NCBI GenBank assembly: GCA_035530555.1
Contig: DATKUR010000013.1
Coordinates: 239-64,238 of the forward strand
DNA from: Candidatus Humimicrobiaceae bacterium
Lineage (GTDB): Bacteria; Patescibacteriota; Minisyncoccia; Minisyncoccales; DG-74-1
DNA: 64,000 nucleotides
Direction of reading: 5' to 3'
The notes below the pieces were generated by a model. That model was not told the DNA's origin and did no database searches. It saw only the letters and a list, made by a program, of their open reading frames with translations. Both the position numbers and the translations under genes were made by a program. Numbering within the stretch: the first letter of the stretch is position 1; every line of letters begins with the position of its first letter. Shown one piece after another: positions 9,604 through 39,681 of the stretch.

Positions 9604-11160
9604 TTACAAAGGTATATTGCCATGCTTCCTGGCTATTTTACTTTCTCTCTTGTTTAGTAAAGACTCCAGGCATTTGACCAAGGTGTTTCTGGTGTCTTTG
9701 GGATGAATTATCAAATCAACCTGGCCTAATCTGGCAGCCTGATAAGGATTTAAGAAAATCTTTTCTAGCTCTTCAATTTTTTCTTTTTCCAGCTTCTTCG
9801 GCTCTCGGCTTTCAGCAATTTCTTTTTTATAAATAATTTTTACTGCCTGCTCAGGCCCCATCACGGCAATTTGAGCAGACGGCCAGGCAATAACCTTGTC
9901 ATAACCTAACTGCCGGGAACATAAAGCGATATAAGCTCCGCCAAAAGCTTTCCTCAATATTAAGCTGATTTTCGGAACGGTTGCTTCGCTATAGGCGTAT
10001 AAAACCTTGGCTCCGTGCCTGATTATCCCCCGATGCTCCTGGTCTTTGCCAGGAAGGTAGCCAGAAGTGTCAACTAAATTAATCAAAGGGATATTAAAAC
10101 AATCACAAAACCTGACAAACCTGGCCACCTTGTCTGAAGAATCAATATCTAAAGTACCAGCCATAAATTTTGTCTGATTAGCTACCAAGCCAACTGAATA
10201 GCCGGATAATCTGGCCAGACCCACCAAGCAATTGGCGGCAAAGCCTGCTTGGATCTCAAAAAAAGAATTTTTATCAAAAATTTCTTCAATCACTTCTTTC
10301 ATATCATAGCCTTTCTTCTTGTCTTCGGGCACTATTTCCAAAAGCCGCATACTTTCTCCTTCAAAAAATTCAGCCAAAAGACCTCTTTGCCTCGGCAAAT
10401 CTGCTAAATTGTTTTGCGGTAAATAAGAGAGGAGTTTTTTTACCCCTAAAAAACAATCTTTTTCTGACTTATAAATAAAATGATTGCAACCGGATTTTTG
10501 GCTGTGAATTGCAGCTCCTCCCAGGTCCTCAAAAGAAACTTTTTCTCCGGAAACAGCTCGAATCACTTCCGGTCCGGTAATATACATCTGCGAAATACCC
10601 TCTACCATAAAAACAAAGTCGGAAAGCCCGGGAGCGTAAGAGGCACCGCCGGCTGACGGGCCAGCAATGATAGAAATTTGGGGGATAACTCCTGAAGCCC
10701 GAATCATTGTTCTAAAAATGGAAGCGTAACCGTCTAAGCTAGATATTCCCTCTTGGATTCTGGCTCCCCCCGAATCGATAATACCAATACAAGGACAACC
10801 GGTTTTGGCGGCTAACTCAATTACTTTGGTAATTTTTTGACCGTGCATTTCTCCTAGAGAACCGCCCATTTTAGAAAAATCCTGACTGAAAAGATAAACC
10901 TGGCGGCCGGAAATCTTGCCAAAGCCGGAAACAACCGCATCTCCGGGAACTTTTTTCTCTGCCATGCCCAATTGATAAAAACGACTCTCAACAAAAGAAT
11001 CTAACTCAACGAAAGTTTCCGGATCCAAAAGCAGGTTAATTCTTTCTCGAGCAGTCAACTTTCCTTTTTGGTGCTGTTTTTCAATTAATTCCGAACTCTC
11101 CAGCTCCTCCCGTTTCTTATTTAGTTTTTCAATCTCATTTTCGAGAGCCATATTATTCAC
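9604..11160 (-). CDS. Acyl-CoA carboxylase carboxyltransferase subunit (PccB/MmdA-like)
   Basis: 518 aa. Fused N- and C-terminal carboxyltransferase domains (DSGGARIQEG, GPSAGGASYAPGLSDFVFMV, RKAFGGAYIAL). Confidence 0.9.
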   Translation of the reverse strand: MNNMALENEIEKLNKKREELESSELIEKQHQKGKLTARERINLLLDPETFVELDSFVESRFYQLGMAEKKVPGDAVVSGFGKISGRQVYLFSQDFSKMGGSLGEMHGQKITKVIELAAKTGCPCIGIIDSGGARIQEGISSLDGYASIFRTMIRASGVIPQISIIAGPSAGGASYAPGLSDFVFMVEGISQMYITGPEVIRAVSGEKVSFEDLGGAAIHSQKSGCNHFIYKSEKDCFLGVKKLLSYLPQNNLADLPRQRGLLAEFFEGESMRLLEIVPEDKKKGYDMKEVIEEIFDKNSFFEIQAGFAANCLVGLARLSGYSVGLVANQTKFMAGTLDIDSSDKVARFVRFCDCFNIPLINLVDTSGYLPGKDQEHRGIIRHGAKVLYAYSEATVPKISLILRKAFGGAYIALCSRQLGYDKVIAWPSAQIAVMGPEQAVKIIYKKEIAESREPKKLEKEKIEELEKIFLNPYQAARLGQVDLIIHPKDTRNTLVKCLESLLNKRESKIARKHGNIPL

Positions 11161-11680
11161 TAATAGTTCGTAGTTGTTCTTTCAACCCTTCAATAATTTG
11201 TTTTAGAAGCTTCCCGTTATCAACTTCTTTGCCTAGTTCTATTCTAAGCGAAGTGGCGATATTTTCCAAGTCCTTAGGGAATTTTTTAATATTGGTGTTC
11301 AAGCCGATCCCCATCACTGACAACTTAACTTCCCTGCCGATAATATTTTCAGTTAAAATCCCAGCTACTTTTTTCCCGTTTATCCAAACATCGTTTGGTA
11401 ATTTAATAAATGTCTCCAGGTTAAAATTTTCTTTTATCGTTTTCGCACAAATAAAGGCAGCTAAGATAGTCAAGGTTTGCAGGTCATCGATATTACTTTT
11501 GGGAAGAATAGCAGAAAAATAAAGCCCGCCTTTAGGAGAAGACCAGGCTGTTTTCTTTCGACCATAACCGCTTGTCTGTTCTTTAGCGACAACTATTGTC
11601 CAGGGATCTGCTCCTTTTTTAGCCAGCTCTTTGGCTTTCAAATTAGTAGATTTAAGGATTTTGTAATTTTTTATAATCAT
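11153..11680 (-). CDS. birA: Minimal biotin-protein ligase (catalytic domain only)
   Basis: 175 aa. GYGRKKTAWSSPKGGLYFS (the GRGRxGRxWxSPxG-type motif) and KLPNDVWINGKKVAGIL. No HTH domain and apparently no C-terminal domain. It sits inside the carboxylase operon and overlaps the next gene by 8 nt. Confidence 0.8.
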   Translation of the reverse strand: MIIKNYKILKSTNLKAKELAKKGADPWTIVVAKEQTSGYGRKKTAWSSPKGGLYFSAILPKSNIDDLQTLTILAAFICAKTIKENFNLETFIKLPNDVWINGKKVAGILTENIIGREVKLSVMGIGLNTNIKKFPKDLENIATSLRIELGKEVDNGKLLKQIIEGLKEQLRTISE

Positions 11681-11693
11681 AGTAAAGCTTGGG

Positions 11694-12110
11694 TTATTCT
11701 AATATTATTAAAGTGTCTCCGCTATTCACGGATTGATTTTCTTTAACTTTAATCTCCTTAATTTTGCCGTATCCTTCGGAAATAATTTCATTTTCCATTT
11801 TCATCGCAATCAAGGTGGCGACTTTTTTGCCAGGTTTTAGCGTTTCGCCAATTTTAACCGCGATACTGGAAATTGTTCCGGCCAAGGGACTTTTAATTTC
11901 TTTATCAATTCTTTCTCTGACAATAATTCCATTTCCTTTTGTTTCCCCATTCAGGTTTTTAGCGTAAGAATCAGTAAAGCGTGACTTACCTAATTCGTTT
12001 TTAGTAAAGAAAAAATCTTTATCGTTCACTTTTACTTTCAATGAGTCATCTTCTGTCTCCGATATTTCGATCCGATAGACTTTATTATCGATTTTAATTG
12101 TCGTTTGCAT
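11694..12110 (-). CDS. Biotin carboxyl carrier protein
   Basis: 138 aa. C-terminal biotinyl domain with the AMKME attachment motif (KVATLIAMKMENEIISEGYGKIKEIKV). Confidence 0.85.
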   Translation of the reverse strand: MQTTIKIDNKVYRIEISETEDDSLKVKVNDKDFFFTKNELGKSRFTDSYAKNLNGETKGNGIIVRERIDKEIKSPLAGTISSIAVKIGETLKPGKKVATLIAMKMENEIISEGYGKIKEIKVKENQSVNSGDTLIILE

Positions 12111-12137
12111 ATTACCGCCGGTTTACGCTGATATTTT

Positions 12138-13712
12138 TTATTCCTCAAAGATACTCATCCTTTCGGCTAATTTCCACTTATTAATCATAGAGGGTTCTGG
12201 CTCTGTTTTTTCTCCCCTGAAATTTTGATAAAACTTGGCGGCCAGCCGGGCTACTTCTTCATCACTTATGGCTTTTTCTTTTTCAGCTTTTCGTCCTTCT
12301 GGAGAGGCCAAGATTTTTTCAAAAACAATAATTTTTTGCGGAATGTTTTTTTCTTTCAAGATTTCAAGAATTTTTTCTCTTTCAATAAAGTCGGTTGATA
12401 GCCTTCCTTCCAAAAAACTCTGGTTCCCCAATAAGGTTTTGTAGAAAGGAATCAAGGTCGGCACTCCTTCAATGATATATTCCTGGAAGGCCCTTCTTGC
12501 TCTCCTAATGACTGATCTTCTGTCTTTAGCAAAAACAACCAGTTTTGCCAAGAGGGGATCAAAATAAGGCAAGACCTTTTGGCCTGCTCGGCAAAAACTG
12601 TGAATTTCAATTCCCTTGCCTCCGGGCGGTAAATATTTGTTAATCTGACCGGCTAGGGGGTGAAAATCAGCCAAGGCGTCTTCGGCATAAATCCTGAATT
12701 CCATCGCCCAGCCAAAAAACTTGATATGCTTTTGTTTAAAATCTAATTTTTCTCCACTGGCCACTCTAATTTGCAGTTCAACCAAGTCGAAATTAGTAAT
12801 CAACTCGGTTACCGGATGCTCGACCTGTAAACGAGGATTAACTTCTAAGAAATAAAAATTTCTGTCTCGATCAACTAAAAATTCTACTGTCCCGGCGCCC
12901 TCATAGTTTAAATGTTGACCCAGTTTTACTGCCAAACTTCCCATTCTTTCCCTTAGTTTTGAATCCAAAAATGGCGAAGGTGCTTCTTCTACCAGCTTTT
13001 GGTGTCTTCTCTGGATGGAACATTCCCTTTCCCCAAGATGCAAGACTTTACCTCGACCGTCGCCCAAGATCTGAAATTCAATATGGCGCGGGCTGATTAA
13101 TAACTTTTCAATAAAAATTTTTTTACTGTTAAAGGCACTCTCTGACGTTCTTTTCAGTCTCTGGAAGCTTTCCATTATTTCTTCTTTGTTTATCCGATGG
13201 ATTTCGGTCATGCCAATTCCACCTCCGCCGTCAACCGCCTTTAAAAGAAAGGGCGGCTTTGTTTTTTTTGCCACCTTGAAGCATTCCTTTTCATCGATCG
13301 CTCGTTGGGGCCCGGGCAATAAGGGAATACCTACTTTCCAAGCGATTTTTTTTGCTTCAACCTTGTCGCCGATTTTTCTTAGCGTTTCGGGGGTAGGCCC
13401 GATAAATTTTATTCCGTTGAGCCGGCAAAGTTCAGCAAAATCACCATTTTGGGCTAAAAATCCGTAACCGGGATGAACGGCTTCGGCTCCGGCCCTTTTG
13501 GCAATCTCAATTATTTTTCTCTGGTTAAGGTAGCCAGTCGCTCCTGCTTCGTCTAAATAATAAAATTCATTAGCCAGTTCTGTTTCCAGGAAATTATCTT
13601 CTTCGCCTTTTTGGGGACACAGCGCAACCGTTTTTATGCCTAATTCCTTGCACGTCCTAATAATCCTAATGGCAATTTCTCCCCGATTGGCAATTAATAT
13701 TTTATTAAACAT
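12138..13712 (-). CDS. accC: Biotin carboxylase (ATP-grasp) with about 75-aa C-terminal extension
   Basis: 524 aa. MFNKILIANRGEIAIRIIRTCKELGI, HPGYGFLAQN and EVNPRLQVEHPVTE are typical AccC motifs. Confidence 0.92.
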   Translation of the reverse strand: MFNKILIANRGEIAIRIIRTCKELGIKTVALCPQKGEEDNFLETELANEFYYLDEAGATGYLNQRKIIEIAKRAGAEAVHPGYGFLAQNGDFAELCRLNGIKFIGPTPETLRKIGDKVEAKKIAWKVGIPLLPGPQRAIDEKECFKVAKKTKPPFLLKAVDGGGGIGMTEIHRINKEEIMESFQRLKRTSESAFNSKKIFIEKLLISPRHIEFQILGDGRGKVLHLGERECSIQRRHQKLVEEAPSPFLDSKLRERMGSLAVKLGQHLNYEGAGTVEFLVDRDRNFYFLEVNPRLQVEHPVTELITNFDLVELQIRVASGEKLDFKQKHIKFFGWAMEFRIYAEDALADFHPLAGQINKYLPPGGKGIEIHSFCRAGQKVLPYFDPLLAKLVVFAKDRRSVIRRARRAFQEYIIEGVPTLIPFYKTLLGNQSFLEGRLSTDFIEREKILEILKEKNIPQKIIVFEKILASPEGRKAEKEKAISDEEVARLAAKFYQNFRGEKTEPEPSMINKWKLAERMSIFEE

Positions 13713-13714
13713 AT

Positions 13715-14368
13715 TTAAGTAGCTAATTGCTTTAATTCTCCTATTATTTTGTCAGTGATTTTTTCTAAAACTTGCTGATATTCCAACGAATCTTCTGCTA
13801 AATTTTGTGCCAAATTAAATTCTTCATTAAAAAACAAAGGCTTGCTGACACTGACTTCAATGATTTTCTTTATTTTCAGTTTTCCCTTAGGAGGCATCGA
13901 TTCAAAAGTTCCTTTAATTCCGGCTGCTATTACTGACACTCCGGTCTTCAAAAAAATTTTGGCCGTCCCGAATCTTCCCTTTTGAATCTCGCCGTTGGTT
14001 GACCTCCTGCCCTCGGGATAAAGCACCAAAATATTGCCCTTTTTTAAAACTTGAATTGCTTGTTTCAGGACGTTCTCCCGAGACCGATCATTTTTCCTAT
14101 CTAAAGGAATGACTCCGGAAATAAAATAGATAGCCCGAATCAACCATTTTATTACTCCTTTAAATCCGTCAATTTGCCCGATGAAATGGAACTTTCTGGG
14201 AACGCAAAGGTAGCTATCTATTATTATATCAAGATAGCTGACATGATTGGAAACCAGGATAAAAGGAGCCATAGGAATATTTCCCAATCCTCTAACTTCT
14301 TTTATTAAGAGTCGGCCAACGATCGGTTTCAAGAAAATTTTACAAAACCAAGAAATGACCGGATTCAT
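13715..14368 (-). CDS. plsC: 1-acyl-sn-glycerol-3-phosphate acyltransferase
   Basis: 217 aa. HxxxxD motif (SNHVSYLDI) and YPEGRRS motif. Confidence 0.85.
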   Translation of the reverse strand: MNPVISWFCKIFLKPIVGRLLIKEVRGLGNIPMAPFILVSNHVSYLDIIIDSYLCVPRKFHFIGQIDGFKGVIKWLIRAIYFISGVIPLDRKNDRSRENVLKQAIQVLKKGNILVLYPEGRRSTNGEIQKGRFGTAKIFLKTGVSVIAAGIKGTFESMPPKGKLKIKKIIEVSVSKPLFFNEEFNLAQNLAEDSLEYQQVLEKITDKIIGELKQLAT

Positions 14369-15273
14369 AAAATTTCTTTGACAATCTCGTCTATTATTTC
14401 CTGAGAACTTTTTATTTCCGAAATGCCGGCGGCCGATAAACCGGCTAAAAGGGGTATTTCCTCAACCTCTTTCCCGCCCAGGGAGCCGGCGATTTTTTCT
14501 GCTTTGATTTCTTCTGGAAAAGCGCCTTTTTCTTCCAATTTTTTCATCTGCTCTGACCATTTATTTTTTATCACCCTAATGGGATGACCGGTAAATCTTA
14601 AGGCAACTGTAATTTCATCAGCTGTTGCTTCAACTATTTTTTGTTTGTAGCCTTCAGAAGCCAAGCATTCTTTTGAGGCTAAAAATCTCGTTCCCATCTG
14701 GATTCCGTCAGCGCCTAATAAAAAAGCGGCTTTAGCGGTTTTACCATCATAAATACCGCCGGCGCCGATTAAGGGAAGGTTTTTTAACATTTTCTTTACC
14801 TGGGAAATCAAGCAAAAAGTGGTGTTTTCACCGATATGGCCGCCCGATTCCAGCCCTTCAACCACCACCGCATCAGCTCCGGCATCTTCCATTTTTTTAG
14901 CCAAACGAGGCGAGGGAACAACCGGAATTATCTTGACTCCGGCTGCCTGAAAATAGGAAAAAAGCGGAAGAGGGTTGCCACCACCGGTAAAAACAACGGG
15001 GACCTGCTCTCTTATTACTAATTTGACCAACTCTTCTGTTTTTGGGTTCTGCAAAAAGAGGTTGACGGCAAAAGGGTTTTTTGTCAGTTCTTTTGTTTTT
15101 TTAATTTCCGCTTCCAGCCAACTGGCCGGCATCAAGCCAGACCCAATAGTACCCAAACCGCCGGCATTAGAAACAGCCGAAACCAATTTGCTTTCTGAAA
15201 TCCCGGCCATCCCGCCTTGAATTATCGGGTATTTTATTCCTAAAAGCTTAATTAATGAATTTTTTTTAAGCAT
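14365..15273 (-). CDS. FabK-like enoyl-ACP reductase II / nitronate monooxygenase family flavoprotein
   Basis: 302 aa. IKYPIIQGGMAGISESKLVSAVSNAGGLGTIGSG and GADGIQMGTRF motifs of the NMO/FabK TIM-barrel family. Confidence 0.75.
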   Translation of the reverse strand: MLKKNSLIKLLGIKYPIIQGGMAGISESKLVSAVSNAGGLGTIGSGLMPASWLEAEIKKTKELTKNPFAVNLFLQNPKTEELVKLVIREQVPVVFTGGGNPLPLFSYFQAAGVKIIPVVPSPRLAKKMEDAGADAVVVEGLESGGHIGENTTFCLISQVKKMLKNLPLIGAGGIYDGKTAKAAFLLGADGIQMGTRFLASKECLASEGYKQKIVEATADEITVALRFTGHPIRVIKNKWSEQMKKLEEKGAFPEEIKAEKIAGSLGGKEVEEIPLLAGLSAAGISEIKSSQEIIDEIVKEIL

Positions 15274-15278
15274 TAAGG

Positions 15279-16296
15279 TCAGTTAAAAATATTAATTTCT
15301 TTACCTGACTTTTTTCTTTTAGCTAGTTTATAGATTAAATTAGCCGTATAGAGGTCTTGAATCGCCAAGCCGGTTGAATCAAAAATGGTGATTTCTTTAT
15401 CGTTTTCTCTCCCCGCTTTCTTGCCGTAAACAATCTCTCCCAAGGAAGCAACGATATCTTTTCTAGTTATAATCCCCTTTGCTACGGGAACATTTATTTC
15501 TCCTGAATGGCTTGCTTGATCCCAGCAGTCAACAACAATTTTCGCCCTTTTCAAAATATCAGGTTCTAATTCTTCTTTGCCGGCCGCATCAGCCCCCGAT
15601 AGCGTTAATATGGGTTCCAGGTAAAATCCATTGGCTTTTAATAATCGGCTTCCTGGTTGGGGTAACGGTAACCAAAATATCTTTCTGGCAGACTTCTTTC
15701 AGCTTTCCCTTTTTAATCCTGATTTTTTCTTTGGCTAAAATTTTTCCCAAGCTTTTGATTGCTTCCTCTCTAATATCGTAAATAGCAATTTCTTTTAACT
15801 TTCTTACCTTTGATATTGCCAAAATTTGAAATAACGCCTGAACACCGGCCCCGACTACTCCTAAGGATTTGGCTTCTTTTTTCGCCAAATATTTTGCCGC
15901 TACCGCTCCTCCGCCTCCCGTTCTTAAGGCAGTAATATAAGTTCCATCCATTAAAGCTAAGGGCAGGCCAGTTTTTGGATCATTCAAGATAATCACGGCC
16001 ATTACTGTTTCCAGTCTTATTTTTTCCTGACCGCCGAATGCCCGATGAAGGTGGGAATTTCCCGGATGAACGTTAACCAGTTTTGTCCCGGTCATCTCTA
16101 AAGTTTCTGAAAAAGAAGGCATTATTCTCAGATCGCCGTTGAATTTTTTGAAATTTAAATAAAGCTTGGAGGGCATTTGAACCTCGCCCCGGCCATAATC
16201 AAAAAAGGCCTTTTCAACAACATCAATAACTTTCTTAATCTCTTTTGGGGGAATTAATTTTTCAACTTCTTTTCGGGTCAAAATAAGCATAAACAA
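15279..16296 (-). pseudogene. Ornithine cyclodeaminase/mu-crystallin family gene (archaeal alanine-dehydrogenase-like) broken by a 1-nt frameshift
   Basis: Track ORFs 15589..16296 (N-terminal part, ends ...GTHINAIGG*) and 15279..15554 (C-terminal part) are in different frames. Deleting one base of the C5 run at 15593..15597 restores INAIGADAAGKEELEPDILKRAKIVVD, the family-typical junction. Confidence 0.8.
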
Positions 16297-16310
16297 AAAT
16301 TTCTAATTAT

Positions 16311-16829
16311 TCATTTTCTGTTTTTCTCCTCAAACTCTTTTTTCTCAATAATGGCCACTGAAAAACGAGTTTCGGTCTTTAATTCATTTCCAGCGAAAGC
16401 TTGAGCCTTGACTCTTGCTATTTTTGTCTTTGAATCTGGAATTGGATAAACTCCTAAAACTTCAGCCTTCAAAATTATTTTGTCTCCGGGGAAAATTGGC
16501 TTGAGAAATTGACAGCTCTTAACGTCATAAGCCAAGAAATGATAATTTTCGTGGTTTTCTATTGCCGAAGCTTTAGCTGAGGCGAGAGAAAAACGAAGTT
16601 CTTCGAACTTTCTTCTTAGTAAAATCGTCGAAAGTTGAGCTAAGGCTTCAACAACCAAAACACCGGGCATAATCTTGAAATCAACAAAATGGCCCTTGAA
16701 ATAATAGTCGTCTTTTGAGGTTTGGTAAAATCCGGAGATGGTATTGTCAGTAATTTCCTCTACTTCGTCCACAAATAAAAAAGGTTCCTGATAAGGAATA
16801 ATCTTTTTAATCTCTGCCTTGTTAAGCAT
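16311..16829 (-). CDS. fabZ: FabZ/FabA-like 3-hydroxyacyl dehydratase (hotdog fold)
   Basis: 172 aa. PYQEPFLFVDEV...YFKGHFVDFKIMPGVLVVEALAQ. It appears to carry an extra roughly 10-12 aa after the ALAQ helix (EELRFSLASAKA) compared with E. coli FabZ as I recall it. Confidence 0.8.
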   Translation of the reverse strand: MLNKAEIKKIIPYQEPFLFVDEVEEITDNTISGFYQTSKDDYYFKGHFVDFKIMPGVLVVEALAQLSTILLRRKFEELRFSLASAKASAIENHENYHFLAYDVKSCQFLKPIFPGDKIILKAEVLGVYPIPDSKTKIARVKAQAFAGNELKTETRFSVAIIEKKEFEEKNRK

Positions 16830-28250: not shown

Positions 28251-29393
28251 TTAGCGTTTACTGCAGGTATGGTTTCTATAAACCAAAATAAGCTTGAGGA
28301 ACTTAAAAATGTTTTTTCTTAAATTTGGCTTTGCTAAAAAATCTGGAAGGGCAGAAAGGCTTTTCAGATAAAAAATATCTTCCCCGGCTTTCTCTAGAAC
28401 CTCTCCAACTTCGTTCAGGCTTTTATTATCAAGTGAATACAAAACTTCCTGGGCTAGAAACAGTTTTTCATTAAAACAAGAAAGGAATTCAATTTTTGAA
28501 GGGTAAGAATCGACATCTTTGGAAAGAATACACTTGGCCGCCTGCTCTCCGGCGATCATGGCATTGCCAATTCCCCCACCCGTTATCGGATCAACCATAG
28601 CACCGGCATCGCCAACCAACAGCGCATTGTCTTTGACTAATTTTATGGATTTTTTCACCAGCGGAATTACGCCGCTGATATTTTTCAAAAAGCGGTAATT
28701 GCCCAAATCTTTTCTAATGGTGTTTTCCATAAAATCTTCAAGTTGTGCCCGAAGATTTATCTTTCTCCCAGAGCCCAAGCCGATATTAGCCGTATTTCTT
28801 GATTTTGGGAAAAACCAGGCATAACCTGAAGGGAATCTTTCTTGGTCAAAATAAAGTTTCATGGTATGACAATCCATTTCTTTTTCCACTTCAACCAAAT
28901 ATTGAAGACAGGGATAAATCGCTACTTTTTCTTGAAAAACCTTTCTTCTAATAATTGAAGCAGGGCCGTCTGCGCCAATAAGATATTTTGATTCAAACTC
29001 CTCACCGTCTTGGGTCTTAACCCTCCAAGTTTCACCTTCTTTCTTGACATCGGTTACTCTTTTTTGAAGACGAATTCTTGCCTGGCATTGGCTGGCTAAG
29101 AATTTTTCAAAATTTACCCTGTCTAAAATATAGCCCCCTTCTTTTGCCGAAAGATTGGCTGTTTTACCGTTTGGCAAAACTGCTTGACTCTTATCAACGG
29201 TAGTTGAAATCCAGTTTGGATCAGGTTTAATCCCAAGTCTGTCTAAAAAATATCTGGCTAATCCTTCGGCACACTGGACCGGCTTACCGATCTCCTCTTT
29301 CTGATCTAAGATCAAAGCATTGTTTAAGTATTTTCCGCAGACCAAACCGCCAGGACCGGCTCCAACAATGATTGTTTCAAAAAGACTTCCCAT
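28251..29393 (-). CDS. Geranylgeranyl reductase family flavoprotein
   Basis: 380 aa. N-terminal FAD motif IIVGAGPGGLVCG. GDAGAMVDPITGGGIGNAM is typical of GGR/digeranylgeranylglycerophospholipid reductases. Confidence 0.85.
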   Translation of the reverse strand: MGSLFETIIVGAGPGGLVCGKYLNNALILDQKEEIGKPVQCAEGLARYFLDRLGIKPDPNWISTTVDKSQAVLPNGKTANLSAKEGGYILDRVNFEKFLASQCQARIRLQKRVTDVKKEGETWRVKTQDGEEFESKYLIGADGPASIIRRKVFQEKVAIYPCLQYLVEVEKEMDCHTMKLYFDQERFPSGYAWFFPKSRNTANIGLGSGRKINLRAQLEDFMENTIRKDLGNYRFLKNISGVIPLVKKSIKLVKDNALLVGDAGAMVDPITGGGIGNAMIAGEQAAKCILSKDVDSYPSKIEFLSCFNEKLFLAQEVLYSLDNKSLNEVGEVLEKAGEDIFYLKSLSALPDFLAKPNLRKNIFKFLKLILVYRNHTCSKR

Positions 29394-29418
29394 ATAGTTT
29401 TATATAAAAAACACAATA

Positions 29419-30237
29419 TTACGAATAAATAGTTGCGAGAGATATCACAATATAAGAAAAAACCGCATAGGCATCAAAAATCCGATAATTCTTTTTAAAC
29501 ATAAGGAGTAAAAGAAAAAAAATAGTTAGAATAAGAAAGGGAAGTAAAAACTTTGAGAAAAAGAAAAAAAAGACTGGAAAAAGAACAAGAGGGTAGAAAA
29601 AGGCCAGGTATTTTAAAAGGTTTTCTGATTTTTTATAGCCAAGAAAGCAGACGGTAGTTTGCAGGCCAGCCCGGGAATCTGATTGATAGTCTTCTAAGTG
29701 GTTTCTTGTTTCCAGCATGGTTGATAAATAGAAAATAGAAAAAGCAATTAAATAGTGGGGGAGGGTCAGTTCTGGGCTAAAAATTAAGAAGGGGAAAATA
29801 AAAATTAAGGCTCCGGCAAAAAGACCATGAGAAATCAAGTCTAAAAAAGGCCTTGATTTCATTCTCAAAGGAGGGGCGGAATAAAAAAACCCGATCAAGC
29901 CGGCAATCAAAACGAACAAAAATATTTCTGTTCCAAAATAGCCCGACAAAAATAAAGCTAAAATGCCTGGCGAGACCGAAAGAAAAAAATTCTTCTTATT
30001 CTGAACCAAAAGACTCTTCACCTCTCTTTTTTCCCCGTCTTCCTTGATATCAAAGAAATTATTAACTGAAAACCCAAAGGCTAAAAGTAAAACACCGATG
30101 ATTGAGAAAAGTAAAATGTCCAAAAGAGGAAATAAAAAGCCTCGAGCAAGAATAAATCCTAAAATACCCAGCCCAAAATAAGCTCGCCAGTCTTTCATTC
30201 GATAATACTTAAAAAAAGACTTTAAATTAATTGACAT
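29419..30237 (-). CDS. UbiA-superfamily membrane prenyltransferase
   Basis: 272 aa, polytopic. Asp-rich motifs NNFFDIKED and NHLEDYQSD. Confidence 0.8.
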   Translation of the reverse strand: MSINLKSFFKYYRMKDWRAYFGLGILGFILARGFLFPLLDILLFSIIGVLLLAFGFSVNNFFDIKEDGEKREVKSLLVQNKKNFFLSVSPGILALFLSGYFGTEIFLFVLIAGLIGFFYSAPPLRMKSRPFLDLISHGLFAGALIFIFPFLIFSPELTLPHYLIAFSIFYLSTMLETRNHLEDYQSDSRAGLQTTVCFLGYKKSENLLKYLAFFYPLVLFPVFFFFFSKFLLPFLILTIFFLLLLMFKKNYRIFDAYAVFSYIVISLATIYS

Positions 30238-30977
30238 TAAATAGCTAAGCCGCCGTCGATATTAACCACTTCGCCAGTAATGAAGCCGGCCTCGTCTGAA
30301 GCTAGAAAGGCAACCAGACTGGCAACCTCTTCCGGTTTGCCAAGCCGCCCCAAGGAAGTCAATTTTAAAACCGCCTGCTTAACCTCTTGAGGTACTGTTT
30401 CTGTCAATTTTGATTCAATAAATCCTGGAGCTACGGCATTAACCCTTACCCCTAACTTCCCGACTTCTTTGGCTAAGGATTTGGTAAAACCAATAACGCC
30501 GGCTTTGGCGGCGGCATAATTCGTCTGACCGAAATTACCTCTTTGGCCTACCAGAGAAGAAATACTAATAATCTTCCCCTGGTTTTGAATGAGTAAGGGT
30601 AAGGCAGCTTTTGAGCAATTAAAAACTCCCGTTAAATCAACGTCAATCACTCTTTGCCATTCTTCTTTGGTCATTTTGGCTAAAGTTCGGTCAGCACAAA
30701 TTCCGGCATTATTTACCAAAACATCCAGCCGACCAAATTCTTTATGAATTTCCTGGGCCATTTCTTCTACTTCTTTCAGCTTTGAAACGTCAGCAAAAAA
30801 ATACCTTGCTTCTATTGCTTGCTTTTCAATTTCTTCCTTAACTTTCTTCAAGTTCTCTTCCTGGCTTTGAATATCGTTTAAGGCAATTTTCCCTCCCAAA
30901 GAAGCAAATTTTAAAGCAATGGCTCTGCCAATTCCCTGAGAAGCGCCGGTAATCAAAATAACTTTATCTTTGAACAT
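30237..30977 (-). CDS. fabG: 3-oxoacyl reductase (SDR, FabG-like)
   Basis: 246 aa. TGASQGIGRAIA, NNAG and YAAAKAG (YxxxK). Confidence 0.85.
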   Translation of the reverse strand: MFKDKVILITGASQGIGRAIALKFASLGGKIALNDIQSQEENLKKVKEEIEKQAIEARYFFADVSKLKEVEEMAQEIHKEFGRLDVLVNNAGICADRTLAKMTKEEWQRVIDVDLTGVFNCSKAALPLLIQNQGKIISISSLVGQRGNFGQTNYAAAKAGVIGFTKSLAKEVGKLGVRVNAVAPGFIESKLTETVPQEVKQAVLKLTSLGRLGKPEEVASLVAFLASDEAGFITGEVVNIDGGLAI

Positions 30978-31032
30978 CGAAATAAATTTATTTATTGAGA
31001 TGCGAAATGAATCAGAGATTCATTGAACATGT

Positions 31033-32130
31033 TTAATGTTTTTCAACTTCGTATTGAACTTCTTCAATTTTTCTGCCGACAATTGGAATATCCTCAATTT
31101 TAACTTTTTTAAGACATTCTGGCAATTTTTCTGTCATTGAAACTTCAGCGAAAATTCTATCTAAGTTTAAAGAATTGAAGCTGCTGAAAATTAAATTCAG
31201 ATGAGCGACAAATTGATCCGGTTTTTGAACCGATCGAGCCTCGGCAAGAGTAAAATATCGCGGCAAAACTTTATTCAAATTTTCGATAATTTCTTCTTCG
31301 GACCGCAAATACTTTAGGGCAAGGTAATTTTCCTTTTTCAAAAACTTTAAAATATTTTCGCTGGCTGAAGTTTTTCCAATTTTTAAAATCGGTAAGTTAA
31401 CAATTAAACCGGCTTTGAAAACTTCTTCTGAAATCTCAAAGACAAAGTCCCCTTCTCTTTTTTCAATAAAATTGGTTTTAGCTAGATCTAAGGGTAAGAT
31501 CTTATAATCCTGACAAACCTTGAGTAATTGGGATTTCTGAGCCGCGGCTTCAATAGGCACTTCATCAAAACTTTGACCGACAACCTTAATATTTTCTAAT
31601 TTTGTCCCCCGTTCCATTAAGTATTTAATAAAACTTTCTAAAAATTGAGGACTGGTGTTTTCGGCAAAATAAGGGTGTCTCGGCGAAACCAAGGTCGGTA
31701 AAATTAAGACTTTAGATGGTCGCTGAGGCAAAACCTCATCTCCCGCCTCGCCCTGCTTAATAGGGCTCAGCTTCTGGTTAATATCAATTCCGTCAATTAA
31801 TTCAAATGCTTTTTCTATTCCCTCTGAAATATCGTACTTTATTCGCCAAATAGCGACTGCGTTGTTATCGGCTGTTGTTTCAGTTTTAAACTCCTCACCG
31901 ATTTGGTATTCTCTGGTGCTTTTCCAAACCCACTTATTCCCGTTTTCATCTTCCAAAACCAAAACAAAATAGGGAATTTTAGGATGAAACGTCGTTGGAA
32001 TGGTTACCCTGGAAACTCCAATAACTTTAACCTTCTCGGACTTCATCTTCTCTAACACCGAAAAACACTCCGGACATTTTTCAATCGGATGCTGCCAAAC
32101 CCTTTGACATTTTGGACATTTATAAAACAT
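31033..32130 (-). CDS. Fusion protein: DUF35-type Zn-ribbon/OB-fold domain plus DUF362-like domain
   Basis: 365 aa. The N-terminus has CPKC...CPEC followed by an OB-like segment (VIGVSRVTIPTTFHPKIPYFVLVLEDENG), as in acyl-CoA-associated DUF35 proteins. The C-terminal roughly 250 aa (KVLILPTLVSPRHPYF...LIVNLPILKIG) resembles DUF362 as I recall that profile. Confidence 0.6.
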   Translation of the reverse strand: MFYKCPKCQRVWQHPIEKCPECFSVLEKMKSEKVKVIGVSRVTIPTTFHPKIPYFVLVLEDENGNKWVWKSTREYQIGEEFKTETTADNNAVAIWRIKYDISEGIEKAFELIDGIDINQKLSPIKQGEAGDEVLPQRPSKVLILPTLVSPRHPYFAENTSPQFLESFIKYLMERGTKLENIKVVGQSFDEVPIEAAAQKSQLLKVCQDYKILPLDLAKTNFIEKREGDFVFEISEEVFKAGLIVNLPILKIGKTSASENILKFLKKENYLALKYLRSEEEIIENLNKVLPRYFTLAEARSVQKPDQFVAHLNLIFSSFNSLNLDRIFAEVSMTEKLPECLKKVKIEDIPIVGRKIEEVQYEVEKH

Positions 32131-32133
32131 AGT

Positions 32134-33621
32134 TTAAGAGGAGTATTCCTCTGAAATTTTTCGGAAGTGAAATCCTTTAACGGCCATATCAATTATCATT
32201 GGAAAAAGTTTTGGTTTTTTAAAAAGGCTCCAAAAGAAAATTTTCCAATAATATAATCTTTCTTTCTCTTTTATCCCCAAAATCCAAACTGACCTTAAAA
32301 GGACCATGAATTGACTGAAATCAAATTTATAATTTCTCTTTTCTCTTGGTTTATATTCTTTCAAAAAATTCATTAATCTTAGATAATAATTTTTAGGAGA
32401 ATAGATATGGTTTATAACCATTTTATAGCCAGAGATTAAAGAATTAGAATTCATTTTAGGAACGAAATTAATGGTGCAATCTGTGTTACTGCCGGTAGGT
32501 TGAGAAATTAATCTTTTTTCTTTTTTTAGCCTTTCCCACAATTTTGTTTTCGGGGGAGCTTGCAAGAGCCCAACCATGGCTGTCGCTATCCCACTCTTTT
32601 GAATAAAAAGAATCATTCTGCCAAAAATTGAAGAAGTGTCTTGGTCAAAACCAATAATAAAACCTCCCTGGACTTGAAGGCCATGAATTTGAATAGTTCT
32701 AATTGACTCTAATAAATTTCGGTTTACATTTTGAAATTTTCCACATCCTTTCAAGCTTTCCTCATCAGGGCTTTCGATCCCAATAAAGACAGTGTTAAAG
32801 CCGGCTTTGACCATCAATTCCATTAATTTTTCATCATCAGCCAGATTAATTGAGACTTGGGTATTAAAAACAAAGGGGTATTTTTTTTCTTCCATCCAGG
32901 GAATTATGGCCGGTAAAATTTCTTTTTTTAGTTTTGTTCTATTCCCAATAAAATTATCATCAACGAAAAATACACTTCCCCGCCAGCCTCTCTCGTACAA
33001 CACATTTAATTCATTTAAAATCTGCTGCCTTTCTTTTATTCTAGGGATTCTGCCATTTAAAAAGACGATGTCGCAAAACTCACAATTGAAGGGACAACCT
33101 CTCGAAAGCTGAACACTCATTGAGGCATATTTTCTTAGACCAATAAGTTCCCAAAGGGGAACCGGTGTCTTGGTAATATCTGGATATTGACTAGAAGCAT
33201 AAATCTTCTTTGGAAAACCAGCTTCTAGATCTTTCAGAAAAAGAGGAAGGGTAGTCTCTGCTTCTCCAAGAACAAAATGATTAATCTTCTTCTCAAATTC
33301 TTCATACCCAGTGGTGAAAAGAGGACCGCCAGCAACAATTTTAGTACCGAATTTTTTGCATCTTTTAATAACATCTTCTACCGATTCTTTTTGAACAATC
33401 ATCGCCGAAATAAAGATAAAATCTGCCCACTGGAGGTCTTTATCGTTTAAATTTTCGATATTGAGGTCAACTAATTTTTTTCCCCAATCTTTGGGCAATA
33501 AAGCCGCTACTGTCAACAAACCTAAGGGTGGAAAAGCTGCTTTTTTCCCAATAAAAGGGAGAGCATATTTAAAGCTCCAAAAACTCTTAGGAAATTTTGG
33601 ATACAAAAGCAAAATTTTCAT
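32134..33621 (-). CDS. B12-binding (class B) radical SAM enzyme with DUF4070-like C-terminus
   Basis: N-terminal cobalamin-binding-like domain (MKILLLYPKF...PPLGLLTVAALL). CxxxCxxC cluster motif SRGCPFNCEFCDI. I prefer ATG 33621 over the track start at 33654. Confidence 0.85.
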   Translation of the reverse strand: MKILLLYPKFPKSFWSFKYALPFIGKKAAFPPLGLLTVAALLPKDWGKKLVDLNIENLNDKDLQWADFIFISAMIVQKESVEDVIKRCKKFGTKIVAGGPLFTTGYEEFEKKINHFVLGEAETTLPLFLKDLEAGFPKKIYASSQYPDITKTPVPLWELIGLRKYASMSVQLSRGCPFNCEFCDIVFLNGRIPRIKERQQILNELNVLYERGWRGSVFFVDDNFIGNRTKLKKEILPAIIPWMEEKKYPFVFNTQVSINLADDEKLMELMVKAGFNTVFIGIESPDEESLKGCGKFQNVNRNLLESIRTIQIHGLQVQGGFIIGFDQDTSSIFGRMILFIQKSGIATAMVGLLQAPPKTKLWERLKKEKRLISQPTGSNTDCTINFVPKMNSNSLISGYKMVINHIYSPKNYYLRLMNFLKEYKPREKRNYKFDFSQFMVLLRSVWILGIKEKERLYYWKIFFWSLFKKPKLFPMIIDMAVKGFHFRKISEEYSS

Positions 33622-34168
33622 ATGTTTTCTTTTTTTTGATAAAAAGTTTATCAAAAATAAATGAAAAAAATAAGCTAAAAGCGGGGGTAAAAATTAAAAC
33701 CGACGCTAACTGATTTTTCAAAAAAGGAAGGCCGGCAATGTAAGAAGTAATGAGCCCCTGGAAATTCATTGGATACATTCCGAAGGTTAACCACCAACCG
33801 AAATTCGTCCAAAGATAGAAAAATAAAACTGAAAGAATTCCTCCGCCGCTAATTTTCAAAAAATAATGCCTTGAGTCTCTCTTAAAAAAGATGCCAAAAA
33901 TGCCAATTAAAACGAAGACTGACCAGGTGAAAAAATAAACCGAGACGTTGCCAAAATAGAAATCCGAAAGAAAAATTATCAAAAGAGGAATAAGGGGAGC
34001 AAAAAAACCGCCCAAAAAAGAGCTCGAAAGCAAAGAAATAGCGGTCACCGCTTCAAGATTGGGGATACCAACTACTTTATTAAGAAAAATTTGTAAAACT
34101 ACCCCAAAAAGGATAACAAAAATTGCAAATAAAATCTTTTTTTTCGTCGGGGCTTGAAAAATTCCCAT
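33587..34168 (-). CDS. Polytopic membrane protein of unknown function
   Basis: 193 aa with about 5-6 hydrophobic helices. It overlaps the downstream radical SAM gene, so the two are probably co-transcribed. Confidence 0.6.
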   Translation of the reverse strand: MGIFQAPTKKKILFAIFVILFGVVLQIFLNKVVGIPNLEAVTAISLLSSSFLGGFFAPLIPLLIIFLSDFYFGNVSVYFFTWSVFVLIGIFGIFFKRDSRHYFLKISGGGILSVLFFYLWTNFGWWLTFGMYPMNFQGLITSYIAGLPFLKNQLASVLIFTPAFSLFFSFIFDKLFIKKKKTYENFAFVSKIS

Positions 34169-34191
34169 AAAAATTCTAAATTAAGGATACA

Positions 34192-34689
34192 ATGGAAACT
34201 TATTTTTTGCCAAGGGAGATGAGGTCGGAATTAAGAAAAATTTGGGGCATTCCTCTTTTTAATGGGAAAAAAAAGGTTCTTAATAAATTTCAGCAGTTTG
34301 CCCAAAAAAAGAGATTTAAAAAGGTAATTACCGTAGGCGATTATTGTTCTCTTACTTTACCTTCTGATATTAAAATTTTTGACGGAAAAATAAAGAGGGG
34401 GAAAGTAAGAAAGCTGCCAAAGTTCTCTCTTTATTGTAGCAATCCGCCAGGAACCATTCAAAAGGGAGTCTGGCTGATTATTAAAAAAGCGATTCAAAAT
34501 AAGGAAAATATTTTTATTGAGGGAGAAGAAGATCTTTTGGTTATCCCTACGGTCTTGCTTTCAGAAAAAAATACGGCTGTAATCTATGGCTTCCCCGATA
34601 AGGGAGTTTGTTTGATTGAAGTTTCGCCCCGCGTAAAAAAAACTTTTAAAGAACTCCTTAAGAAGTTTTCCTTAAAATGTGGCAAGTGA
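34192..34689 (+). CDS. DUF359-family protein, probable archaeal-type GTP-dependent dephospho-CoA kinase
   Basis: 165 aa. Family-like motifs VITVGDYCS, FDGKIKRG, NPPGTIQ, IEGEEDLLVIPTVLL and VIYGFPDKGVCLIEV. AAGGA SD lies 7 nt upstream of the ATG. Confidence 0.7.
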   Translation: METYFLPREMRSELRKIWGIPLFNGKKKVLNKFQQFAQKKRFKKVITVGDYCSLTLPSDIKIFDGKIKRGKVRKLPKFSLYCSNPPGTIQKGVWLIIKKAIQNKENIFIEGEEDLLVIPTVLLSEKNTAVIYGFPDKGVCLIEVSPRVKKTFKELLKKFSLKCGK

Positions 34690-35788
34690 CGCTTCCGCCG
34701 GTTCCGCCAACGTTATGGCAGAGGCCGATTTTAGGATTACCTTTAACTTGCCGCTTGCCGCATTCTCCCCTTAATTGATTAACGATCTCGTAAACTTGGG
34801 CTAATCCGGTGGCAGAGATCGGATGACCCTTAGCTTTTAAACCGCCGGAAGGGTTAACCGGCAACCGGCCGTCCAAATTAACCTTTCCTTGCCGGATTAA
34901 TTCTGCTCCTTTCCCGCTTTCGGCAAAACCCAAGTCTTCATAAGAGAATAATTCAACCGAAGTAAAGGCGTCGTGAATTTCAGCCACTTGAATATCTTCC
35001 GGCTTTATTTTAGCTTCTTTGTACGCCTGCTCGGCCGCCAACTCAGTCGCCTGGAAATGCCAAGGCTCTTTTCTGTTAAAGGTTAAAAGATAATCAGTAG
35101 CGAAACCAGAACCTAAAACTTCGATGTCAGTTTTTTCTTTTGTTAAAATTGCTGCGGCCCCTCCGTTGACCGATAAAGAGCAATCCATTAAACGAAAGGG
35201 AGAAGCAACAACTGGCGATTTCTTAATTTCTTCTAAAGAAACTTTCCTTTGATAGTAATAAGCCTTAGGGTTTAAGGCAGCGTTTTGGTGGTTTTTATAA
35301 GCAATCAAGGCCAAATCATCCATAGTGGCGCCATATTTCAGCATATATTGCTGCCAGACTAGGGCATTTTGAACCGGAAATAGAGTACCTTCTGGCTGCT
35401 CAATTACTCTCTCGGTGGCTGATAATATCCAATGAGCAGTCACCTCACCTTTGTTGTCAACTAGCTTTTCACCGGAAACAATTAAAATGTTATTAAACTT
35501 TTCCAGTTGTAAAGCCGTCCAGAGAGCCACTCCACCACCGGCACAAACCGAGGGTGTTTCAATGATCGGGACATTTGTCTTAAATAAATCAGCCAGAAAG
35601 GAAACCTTATGAGTCTGATGTTCGCTAAAACCTTCGGCGCTGGAAATACTGGTTAAAACAATTGCCTCAATCTGAGAAATCCTCATTTTGGCGCCTTCTA
35701 AGGCCTCAAGAGCGGCGACAGTTGCGAACTGCCACCAGGGTTCTTGAGAATAATCAAATTTTGTCATCCCTACTCCTTTGATATACAT
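34658..35788 (-). CDS. Thiolase-like acetyl-CoA acetyltransferase (archaeal/SCP-x type)
   Basis: 376 aa. Nucleophile context TPSVCAGGGVAL. C-terminal GLCHNVGGTGGS. Confidence 0.85.
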   Translation of the reverse strand: MYIKGVGMTKFDYSQEPWWQFATVAALEALEGAKMRISQIEAIVLTSISSAEGFSEHQTHKVSFLADLFKTNVPIIETPSVCAGGGVALWTALQLEKFNNILIVSGEKLVDNKGEVTAHWILSATERVIEQPEGTLFPVQNALVWQQYMLKYGATMDDLALIAYKNHQNAALNPKAYYYQRKVSLEEIKKSPVVASPFRLMDCSLSVNGGAAAILTKEKTDIEVLGSGFATDYLLTFNRKEPWHFQATELAAEQAYKEAKIKPEDIQVAEIHDAFTSVELFSYEDLGFAESGKGAELIRQGKVNLDGRLPVNPSGGLKAKGHPISATGLAQVYEIVNQLRGECGKRQVKGNPKIGLCHNVGGTGGSVTCHILRKTS

Positions 35789-35803
35789 ATATATAGCTTA
35801 GTA

Positions 35804-37597: not shown

Positions 37598-38287
37598 CTA
37601 TTTAAATTTTTCCTCTAGCTCTTTTAGAATTTTAGCTGCTAACTCTTTTCCGCCTAAGCCAAAAGAAAGACCCAAGGCAACTGAAATGGTAATTGCTACA
37701 CCGATGAAAATAACTAAAATCAAGGAGGGTGTTATTTTAAGCTGGTAGAGAATGGCCAAAATAGCAAAAAGCCAGATTGCCCAACGGATTGCCTTGCCTG
37801 AAAATCGCGAATAAGTTATTTTTTCCTTCTTCAGGGTACCAACCACAATCTTTTGAGAAAAATCAGCCAAAAAAACAGCCACAAGAAAAATTAAAATAGC
37901 AATAAAAATATTAGGATAATAACCAACCACTTTCCATAAAAATTGGCTGAAGGAAGTCAAGCCCAGGATTCTAGCGCTTAGAATTTCAGCAGCTATCGTC
38001 AAAAAAAGGATAACAAAAAACCATCTTACTATTTCGCCAAAAAACTTCGGAGCATTAAGCCGTGTATCTATTCTAGACAGAGATTCTTCTATGCCCATGC
38101 CCTTTAAAACTTGATTCAATCTAATTTTGCCCAGAAAATCGGCGGCTCTTTTTCCTAGCCATTGAGAAATAAGCCAGCCAACCAAGAAAAACAGAAAGGC
38201 TCCAAGGGCACAAAGCGGATAAGAAGCTGGAATTTGTATTAAGTATTTATAAACTTCTTCCCACATAAATAATTTATACGCTACCAT
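37598..38287 (-). CDS. Polytopic membrane protein (conserved-TM-helix type)
   Basis: 229 aa with 4-5 hydrophobic helices. No catalytic motif recognised. Confidence 0.55.
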   Translation of the reverse strand: MVAYKLFMWEEVYKYLIQIPASYPLCALGAFLFFLVGWLISQWLGKRAADFLGKIRLNQVLKGMGIEESLSRIDTRLNAPKFFGEIVRWFFVILFLTIAAEILSARILGLTSFSQFLWKVVGYYPNIFIAILIFLVAVFLADFSQKIVVGTLKKEKITYSRFSGKAIRWAIWLFAILAILYQLKITPSLILVIFIGVAITISVALGLSFGLGGKELAAKILKELEEKFK

Positions 38288-39600: not shown

Positions 39601-39681
39601 CGAAGCTTCGATTCGTTAAAATTGACCGTTCGATGAACTTTTAATTTACATTGTCTCTCGTTGAGTTTTCAGTTTAATTCT

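Follow-up and report, generated by a model that had tools for sequence, protein, structure and literature searches.

The stretch of DNA analysed here, called the window below, comprises 64,000 nucleotides (nt) of contig DATKUR010000013.1 from a Candidatus Humimicrobiaceae bacterium (GenBank assembly GCA_035530555.1). Near its centre are two adjoining minus-strand genes that are the subject of this work: one encodes a fusion of a DUF35 module with a DUF362 domain, and the other, directly upstream, encodes a cobalamin (B12)-binding radical S-adenosylmethionine (SAM) enzyme with a DUF4070 tail. The host (G000 in our genome sample) is an ultra-small bacterium of the candidate phyla radiation (CPR) with a 643-kb genome that is 95% complete, and its relatives carry the names Parcubacteria, Nealsonbacteria or Paceibacterales.

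Assignments by open reading frame (ORF), Pfam, NCBIfam and tblastn showed that the minus strand of the window is one long string of lipid genes (Table 1). In transcription order it begins with PlsY, HAD, DegV, CarS, a small MscS-like membrane protein, a FakA-DegV fusion and a thiolase. These are followed by DUF6580, the B12 radical SAM enzyme, the DUF35::DUF362 fusion, FabG, UbiA, geranylgeranyl reductase (GGR), polyprenyl synthase and isopentenyl diphosphate isomerase, and the string ends with 3-hydroxy-3-methylglutaryl-coenzyme A (HMG-CoA) synthase, HMG-CoA reductase, mevalonate kinases and decarboxylase, FabZ, FabK, PlsC, a three-part acyl-CoA carboxylase and biotin ligase. The whole mevalonate pathway lies inside this string, and the lipid supercluster occupies more than 30 kb of the genome. 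The lipid context that a preliminary description of the sequence had reported around the gene pair is real, as is the shared gene string that it proposed for the radical SAM enzyme and a small membrane protein: the DUF6580 gene overlaps the start of the radical SAM gene by 35 nt, and the radical SAM stop codon lies 3 nt ahead of the ATG of the fusion.

Table 1. Features of the lipid gene string, with positions in the window.
Feature	Position	Strand	Basis
Fusion protein DUF35::DUF362, 365 amino acids (aa)	31033..32130	-	ORF, Pfam, AlphaFold model
DUF35 module (fusion residues 1-95; CxxC...CxxC zinc ribbon and oligonucleotide/oligosaccharide-binding (OB) fold); predicted thiolase-docking part	31846..32130	-	cysteines, profile, structure matches
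DUF362 domain (fusion residues 96-365 and stop; LarA N-domain fold, degenerate canonical motifs)	31033..31845	-	Pfam, VIA-align
B12-binding radical SAM enzyme with DUF4070 tail, 495 aa	32134..33621	-	Pfam
DUF6580 polytopic membrane protein, 193 aa; probable solitary cobalamin carrier	33587..34168	-	Pfam E 5e-28, CbrT profile match, fold
DUF359 protein, archaeal GTP-dependent dephospho-CoA kinase family	34192..34689	+	Pfam DUF359 E 4e-26; NF041125 E 2e-19, below cut-off
Archaeal/SCP2-type thiolase; predicted partner of DUF35 module	34658..35788	-	Pfam Thiolase_C_1; PDB matches
FabG-type 3-oxoacyl reductase, directly downstream of fusion	30237..30977	-	TIGR01830, 298 bits
Rest of fatty-acid module (FabZ to carboxyltransferase)	9604..16829	-	tblastn, NCBIfam
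FabZ	16311-16829	-	tblastn with L006 and L004 proteins; NCBIfam
FabK	14365-15273	-	tblastn with L006 and L004 proteins; NCBIfam 327 bits
PlsC	13715-14368	-	tblastn with L006 and L004 proteins
Biotin carboxylase	12138-13712	-	tblastn with L006 and L004 proteins
Biotin carboxyl carrier protein (BCCP)	11694-12110	-	tblastn with L006 and L004 proteins
Biotin ligase	11153-11680	-	tblastn with L006 and L004 proteins
Carboxyltransferase	9604-11160	-	tblastn with L006 and L004 proteins

The DUF35-DUF362 fusion recognised in the preliminary description proved to be real and conserved, with both halves identified by fold. Among the 589 homologues recovered, the 120 best share at least 57% identity with the query and in nearly all cases cover 89-100% of it, ruling out that two genes had been joined by a sequencing error. 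The description was aware of no reported function for this combination of domains, and our literature search likewise turned up no paper on a DUF35::DUF362 fusion. The AlphaFold model of the protein has a predicted local distance difference test score (pLDDT) of 90.7 and a predicted template modelling score of 0.89. At the N-terminus the zinc-ribbon cysteines C5, C8, C19 and C22 are fully or almost fully conserved among the homologues, and W12, P53, Y54 and K70 are conserved as well. The two best PDB matches of the N-terminal profile are both DUF35 proteins (6htj and 6esq_E, E 0.06), the latter from the thiolase/HMG-CoA synthase complex, where it is the DUF35 subunit, and residues 1-95 of the model align over 83-96 residues with the DUF35 subunits BbsA (Z 7.5), MucB (Z 7.4), 6esq_G (Z 6.8) and ChsH2 (Z 6.5). 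The Pfam DUF35 models remained below threshold here: PF12172 gave E 0.047 and 13.9 bits against a cut-off of 23.2, and PF01796 was not found anywhere in the genome, the fusion included. By its predicted fold, then, the head of the fusion is a divergent member of DUF35, although it is not one by the curated models.

The second half matches the Pfam DUF362 model (PF04015) at residues 141-327 with E 4e-9 and 37.2 bits against a cut-off of 24. Residues 96-364 of the model superimpose on the N-domain of LarA lactate and malate racemases with VIA-align Z scores of 15-17 and a root-mean-square deviation of about 3 Å over about 205 residues, at a sequence identity of 8-14%; DUF362 and the DUF2088 domain of LarA are placed in one Pfam clan, CL0471 (PMC11770544). 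An alignment of the Parcubacteria clade (A1) showed that the canonical DUF362 motifs KPN, KTH..G and GxEGxGP have been replaced there, the fusion retaining only a TNP-like NTSP motif together with K199 and D324, and the few conserved residues of this half are T159, P161, K199 and D324. Relatives of 460-495 aa, which have Woesearchaeota proteins as their nearest Atlas clusters, keep the canonical motifs in part. Between the two halves, residues 119-137 form a disordered loop (pLDDT below 50). This inter-domain loop carries an 18-residue insertion rich in proline and charged residues (window 31720-31785, residues ~116-137), which among the aligned homologues only P0013 and P0053 share.

Co-occurrence was assessed across 61 genomes of the same order. 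The fusion is present in 18 of these, and FabK in exactly the same 18. The thiolase accompanies the fusion in 17 of the 18 genomes, the exception (G029) being 79% complete with its fusion gene at a contig end, and the two genes mostly lie less than 3 kb apart on one contig. HMG-CoA synthase was found in eight genomes, seven of which also have the fusion, and GGR likewise in eight, six of them with the fusion. It can be seen, moreover, that the gene order thiolase-fusion-short-chain dehydrogenase/reductase (SDR) persists in fusion relatives at 25-37% identity. The preliminary description had set DUF35 in the frame of HMG-CoA synthase and mevalonate, and this framing was not supported, since the fusion tracks FabK in 18 of 18 genomes and HMG-CoA synthase in only 7 of 18.

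The best PDB matches of the thiolase are 7yvy, 6esq_A (from the thiolase/HMG-CoA synthase/DUF35 complex; E 1e-52) and BbsB, and its closest solved relatives are DUF35-partnered thiolases. Thiolase, FabG, FabZ and FabK are all encoded in the window, while a search of the genome, which at 95% completeness does not prove absence, found neither a PP-binding/acyl carrier protein (ACP) domain (PF00550) nor a ketoacyl synthase (PF00109); this is the gene content expected of ACP-independent, thiolase-based synthesis. There is also no second, stand-alone DUF35 in the host genome. A published remark that the fatty-acid genes of Nealsonbacteria are nearly complete but lack the ACP machinery (Probst 2020; PMC7242380) agrees with a CoA-based module here. 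The DUF359 protein has the archaeal GTP-dependent dephospho-CoA kinase model as its best match, below cut-off, and a protein of this kind would suit a CoA-based pathway. We read the fusion as a novel form of the DUF35 thiolase scaffold that belongs to a fatty-acid module based on CoA; it is probably the docking subunit, or adaptor, of an ACP-free fatty-acid pathway. To our knowledge, every characterised DUF35 protein docks on a partner of thiolase fold (thiolase/HMG-CoA synthase, BbsAB, PhlABC, ChsH2-Ltp2).

Two distant loci deserve separate mention. At L017 (JGI Ga0598299_0007306) the genes after a distant fusion relative of 466 aa encode a GNAT acetyltransferase and a radical SAM protein of 480 aa for which no B12 domain is recorded; this is a second, different radical SAM adjoining a thiolase-fusion pair. 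At L018 (GCA_029558265.1 contig 35) a 346-aa fusion relative stands with a thiolase and an SDR directly after methylmalonyl-CoA mutase, MeaB and CobA, and this is another association of the thiolase-fusion-SDR triad with B12-dependent acyl-CoA chemistry.

The true start of the radical SAM gene is the ATG at 33621, as in an identical database protein. Pfam identified a B12-binding domain (PF02310, E 2.5e-10), a Radical_SAM domain (PF04055, E 9e-15) and DUF4070, and the CX3CX2C motif reads CPFNCEFC at residue 176. With the B12-binding Rossmann domain and the CX3CX2C core both present, its initial designation as a class B radical SAM enzyme stands. The same three-domain build, B12-binding plus radical SAM plus DUF4070, defines the HpnP-like proteins (PMC10697835), and B12 radical SAM enzymes are known as methylases, cyclases and desaturases of lipid tails (PMC13459092; 10.1101/2025.10.20.683597), most of the known lipid radical SAM enzymes acting on isoprenoids (PMC13459092). 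Membership of a curated family was considered and rejected, because every NCBIfam score fell far short of its cut-off: the best was 86 bits against 600, with 69 against 360 for TIGR04072 (ladderane), 61 against 481 for BchE, 55 against 578 for HpnJ, 47 against 650 for HpnR and 15 against 450 for Tes. In the PDB its nearest sequences are QCMT (9ccb), OxsB and AprD4, none of them matching better than E 1e-6. No other protein with a B12-binding domain was detected in the genome.

Within the order, orthologues of the radical SAM enzyme are 65-86% identical, and in seven independent contigs (the window included) the gene stands, tightly spaced, between thiolase and fusion, often preceded by DUF6580 and DUF4430. 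This fixed position suggests that the enzyme tailors acyl chains. It is an optional gene, present in 4 to 5 of the 61 genomes and absent from the closest named relative, DG_74_1. Among the genomes of the order that carry it, only the host has GGR or HMG-CoA synthase, and two others (G048 and G053) have FabZ immediately after FabG; this makes an isoprenoid substrate unlikely. The preliminary description had envisaged a C-methylation or C-C bond-forming step on an isoprenoid or acyl chain, with co-occurrence with the GGR/UbiA pair as a check. The isoprenoid half of that proposal is not supported, as the radical SAM gene does not track GGR/UbiA, and the acyl half survives as a best guess. A recent horizontal gain was not supported by guanine-plus-cytosine content, which is 34.2% for the radical SAM gene and 33.3% for DUF6580, compared with 34.9% for DUF359, 34.2% for UbiA and 36.3% for the fusion.

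Elsewhere the family has other surroundings. Ten of 400 other Patescibacteria carry homologues at 41-63% identity, none of them in a lipid context and seven of them in genomes where FabK was not found. When one genome of each prokaryotic species was scanned, at least 589 radical SAM loci were recovered, and the best 80 of these, which are full length and 54-62% identical, span Aquificota, Chloroflexota, Bacillota, Desulfobacterota, Bacteroidota, Planctomycetota, Aminicenantes and Woesearchaeota; a thiolase is nearby in 1 of the 80 and FabG in 2. Conserved neighbours at these 80 loci and the ten Patescibacteria loci came only from generic families, such as histidine kinase, sigma factors and SpoU. 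The linkage to lipid genes thus holds for close orthologues (at least 65% identity) in one order, but not at 41-63% identity elsewhere in Patescibacteria or at 54-62% in other phyla. We conclude that the enzyme belongs to a strongly conserved orphan family of many anaerobic phyla whose lipid link is local to one order; within that order a role in lipid tailoring is plausible, with acyl-chain methylation or anaerobic desaturation as our best guess for the reaction.

The small polytopic membrane protein encoded upstream is no bystander, but probably a B12 carrier. In addition to the Pfam match, a DUF6580 profile (A3) searched against the PDB gave a single match, to CbrT (6fnp_A, E 2.3e-6, residues 8-172 against 14-175), and 6FNP is a cobalamin S-component (PMC5997447). 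The DUF6580 model has a pLDDT of 80, its top Foldseek rows are energy-coupling factor (ECF) S-components, and the highest template modelling scores are to BtuM (0.61/0.65), with all E values at or above 0.17. A six-helix S-component fold thus goes together with a sequence relation to a proven B12 carrier, and on these predicted features DUF6580 is a probable CbrT/BtuM-like carrier. Its gene adjoins or overlaps the radical SAM gene in G000, G029 and G048, often with DUF4430 beside it. That the genome would have to obtain cobalamin from outside was already foreseen in the preliminary description; import is indeed required, and a candidate carrier adjoins the gene of the enzyme that would use the cofactor. 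Cobalamin binding and use by the radical SAM enzyme, predicted from its domains, are indirectly supported by this adjacency.

CbrT requires an ECF module for transport (PMC5997447). No EcfT (PF02361) turned up in this genome, which is 95% complete, so that DUF6580, if functional, must act alone like BtuM. BtuM works by itself, without an ECF module. Searches of the genome by tblastn (E up to 1e-3) found no CobA, methylmalonyl-CoA mutase small subunit, MtrA-like protein or DUF4430, and no class I/II ribonucleotide reductase (PF02867) was found in it. DUF4430 may be transcobalamin-like, as its InterPro name suggests; PDB searches with the single sequence and with a profile gave no match for it. 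In another CPR genome of the order, one without the radical SAM enzyme, locus L014 (G028:C3:172134-175622) reads NusG, L11, DUF4430, DUF6580, dCTP deaminase and an MtrA-like protein with a pterin-binding DUF4346 domain, and a putative DUF4430-DUF6580 uptake pair there stands two genes from a corrinoid-type protein.

We propose the following model, to which as a whole we give a probability of about 0.5: the fusion would be the adaptor of a CoA-based fatty-acid module, DUF6580 the B12 carrier, and the radical SAM enzyme an accessory acyl-tailoring activity. The zinc-ribbon/OB head of the fusion would dock on the neighbouring archaeal-type thiolase, which would build chains on CoA with no ACP required. 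The LarA-like Rossmann domain formed by the DUF362 half, either as a non-catalytic platform or as a nucleotide- or CoA-binding piece, would keep FabG and perhaps FabZ, which act next, at the thiolase, and reduction would then pull the unfavourable Claisen condensation, as in the Sulfolobus acidocaldarius complex. The same thiolase may also feed HMG-CoA synthase in this genome. As a solitary S-component-type carrier, DUF6580 would supply the only B12-domain protein detected in the genome, and this cobalamin-dependent accessory enzyme would tailor fatty-acyl chains by C-methylation or anaerobic desaturation, acting on CoA intermediates or on finished lipids.

Several observations weigh against this model. 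The DUF35 assignment depends on structure prediction together with weak sequence signals (E 0.06). FakA-DegV, DegV and PlsY genes in the cluster show that the cells can also use scavenged fatty acids, and the module might only elongate chains or even degrade them. An acyl-CoA carboxylase is present, yet nothing obviously consumes malonyl-CoA. For the cobalamin branch, the failure to find EcfT counts on the same side, and no cobalamin riboswitch was found in the window. The radical SAM gene is missing from a genome of the same genus and from 14 of the 18 fusion-bearing genomes, it has homologues at 58-63% identity in Patescibacteria without FabK and without lipid neighbours, and the homologues at 54-62% identity in many phyla lack a conserved context; strong conservation of this kind would also fit a universal substrate that is not a lipid.

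This last point leads to the alternative that we take most seriously, although we put it somewhat below even odds, namely that the radical SAM enzyme modifies an RNA, a protein or a cofactor common to anaerobes and owes its place in the operon to an accident of gene order in compact genomes. The breadth of the family across phyla, the near absence of thiolase and FabG from its surroundings, the generic regulators that recur as neighbours and the ten Patescibacteria homologues outside any lipid context all speak for it. They have to be set against the seven independent contigs of one order that place the gene exactly between thiolase and adaptor, and against the three-domain build, which is that of the lipid methylase HpnP. 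An orphan context is, moreover, compatible with lipids, since genes for enzymes that work on finished lipids typically stand alone as well, the cyclopropane synthase gene among them. We consider it highly improbable that the enzyme instead tailors the isoprenoid chains that the flanking GGR, UbiA and polyprenyl synthase make, whether through methylation or through C-C coupling, in the manner of the archaeal glycerol dialkyl glycerol tetraether (GDGT) enzymes. These genes do lie less than 4 kb away in the window, and a preference of lipid radical SAM enzymes for isoprenoids is on record, but in DG_74_1, which has no radical SAM gene, the isoprenoid block is likewise inserted between FabG and FabZ, the radical-SAM-bearing G048 and G053 lack GGR and HMG-CoA synthase, and the Tes, HpnR and HpnJ scores are far below cut-off.

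The remaining alternatives concern the fusion and its module. It is unlikely, in our judgement, that the DUF35 head just scaffolds the classical mevalonate-pathway complex of acetoacetyl-CoA thiolase and HMG-CoA synthase. This reading has in its favour that HMG-CoA synthase is encoded in the gene string along with the entire pathway, that no other DUF35 was found in the genome and that the thiolase resembles 6esq_A, but 11 of the 18 fusion-bearing genomes show no HMG-CoA synthase while all 18 have FabK, and one genome (G024) has HMG-CoA synthase without thiolase or fusion. In addition, the cluster of one distant relative has a separate set of thiolase, KASIII/HMG-CoA synthase-like protein and stand-alone DUF35 beside thiolase-fusion-SDR, which argues that the fusion is not just a mevalonate scaffold. 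A dual role of the fusion, in fatty-acid and mevalonate synthesis, is possible in this genome. A degradative or remodelling module, which would shorten or elongate scavenged fatty acids rather than make them de novo, is about equally doubtful. Thiolases are reversible, and FakA-DegV, two further DegV and three PlsY genes are present in the lipid cluster; FabK, FabZ and FabG are, however, enzymes of biosynthetic type, acyl-CoA carboxylase and biotin ligase are co-clustered, and no acyl-CoA dehydrogenase was seen in the cluster. That the DUF362 domain is itself catalytic, for example as a LarA-like hydride-shuttling epimerase of hydroxyacyl intermediates, appears improbable, for despite the LarA N-domain fold and the shared clan with DUF2088 only that N-domain was matched, the KPN, KTH and GxEGxGP motifs are lost in the clade and identity to LarA is very low.

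Some features of the string and of the genome stand apart from the above. The DUF359 gene, on the opposite strand, overlaps the 3' end of the thiolase gene by 32 nt with its own 3' end and starts 23 nt from the start of DUF6580, so that minus-strand transcription must either start inside DUF359 or cross it antisense. This antisense placement is retained in many related contigs: the gene stands between thiolase and fusion in most of those examined, including L030, and is absent from L007 and L008. A scan of positions 30800-36000 found promoter and terminator sites no more frequently than in shuffled sequence. Between FabZ and FabK (15330-16296) an ornithine cyclodeaminase/mu-crystallin gene appears as two tblastn pieces in different frames when compared with its full-length L008 relative, and it is probably frameshifted or split in this genome. 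CarS (NF003114, 133 bits), a CDP-alcohol transferase with archaetidylinositol phosphate synthase as its best match, the UbiA prenyltransferase and GGR are present (window 28251-30237 and 38281-40281), and no PcrB/GGGPS was found in the genome; a route to an ether-linked isoprenoid lipid, if one exists, is incomplete or proceeds via UbiA. BioY was not found by tblastn of the genome (E up to 1e-3) despite the acyl-CoA carboxylase, BCCP and biotin ligase, and in related clusters it stands directly after the fusion.

The usual description of CPR bacteria is that they cannot make lipids of their own. A 643-kb genome in which chain building apparently runs on CoA, with a thiolase of archaeal type and a new adaptor, is relevant to the 'lipid divide' and to the question of how ultra-small symbionts build their membranes, and the fusion supplies a metabolic context for DUF362. 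A B12 carrier role for DUF6580 would explain how a B12 enzyme operates in a genome without a cobalamin pathway. If the radical SAM enzyme does act on lipids, it would be among the very few radical SAM enzymes that work on fatty-acyl rather than isoprenoid chains, and a function would be assigned to a family present in hundreds of anaerobes. A bolder extension, which we regard as speculative, is that the whole family is a stand-alone, pan-anaerobe modifier of acyl chains, an anaerobic counterpart of cyclopropane synthase or the desaturases that would carry out cobalamin-dependent mid-chain methylation or O2-independent desaturation during or after synthesis. In that case the Parcubacteria operon (thiolase, B12 carrier, radical SAM, fusion, FabG) would give this orphan family its first metabolic setting, and CPR cells would import B12 solely to tune their membrane.

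The nearest known system is that of S. acidocaldarius, where a ketothiolase/DUF35 pair (Saci_1121 and Saci_1120) binds an SDR reductase (Saci_1104) and a MaoC dehydratase (Saci_1085) and so drives the condensation (bioRxiv 10.1101/2024.07.05.601840). In the window, too, the genes for thiolase, DUF35 partner and SDR ketoreductase lie side by side, with the dehydratase and enoyl reductase elsewhere in the cluster, and the chemistry, here read from genes, would be CoA-based and free of ACP. The present system differs in that DUF35 is fused to a 270-aa DUF362 domain, in having enzymes of the bacterial FabG/FabZ/FabK types instead of MaoC/medium-chain dehydrogenase/reductase, in the co-clustered acyl-CoA carboxylase and in having a CPR bacterium as host. 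The thiolase/HMG-CoA synthase/DUF35 complex of Methanothermococcus thermolithotrophicus (6ESQ, 6ET9) resembles it in the thiolase and in the DUF35 head (24% identity), and HMG-CoA synthase is present in the host genome as well; the DUF362 domain is extra here, and the fusion follows FabK over HMG-CoA synthase. Precedent for a DUF35 fused to a second domain and tethered to a thiolase-fold partner is found in the steroid side-chain complexes ChsH2-Ltp2 and Shy-Sal (6OK1, 9MYR), although those have DUF35 on the C-terminal side of a MaoC hydratase and an aldolase as the partner, whereas here it is N-terminal to a LarA-like domain and the predicted partner is a true thiolase.

The LarA racemases, which are nickel-pincer nucleotide enzymes (5HUQ, 6D6Z, 9EIA), share their N-domain fold and clan with the DUF362 half, but the latter has no C-domain, has lost the canonical DUF362 motifs and shows no sign of racemase chemistry. 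Like HpnP, the HpnP-like proteins and the archaeal B12 radical SAM lipid enzymes (Grs, Gmm, GDGT methylases, Ted desaturase), the radical SAM enzyme has the three-domain build and a place in a lipid cluster; unlike them it misses the curated cut-offs, is accompanied by no hopanoid or GDGT genes and belongs to a family that is an orphan in most phyla. DUF6580, finally, forms a Pfam family separate from CbrT and comes from a genome in which no EcfT was found, but with CbrT (6FNP) it shares a profile match, with the solitary carrier BtuM (8OVV/8C7P) its best fold match, and its gene lies beside that of a B12 enzyme.

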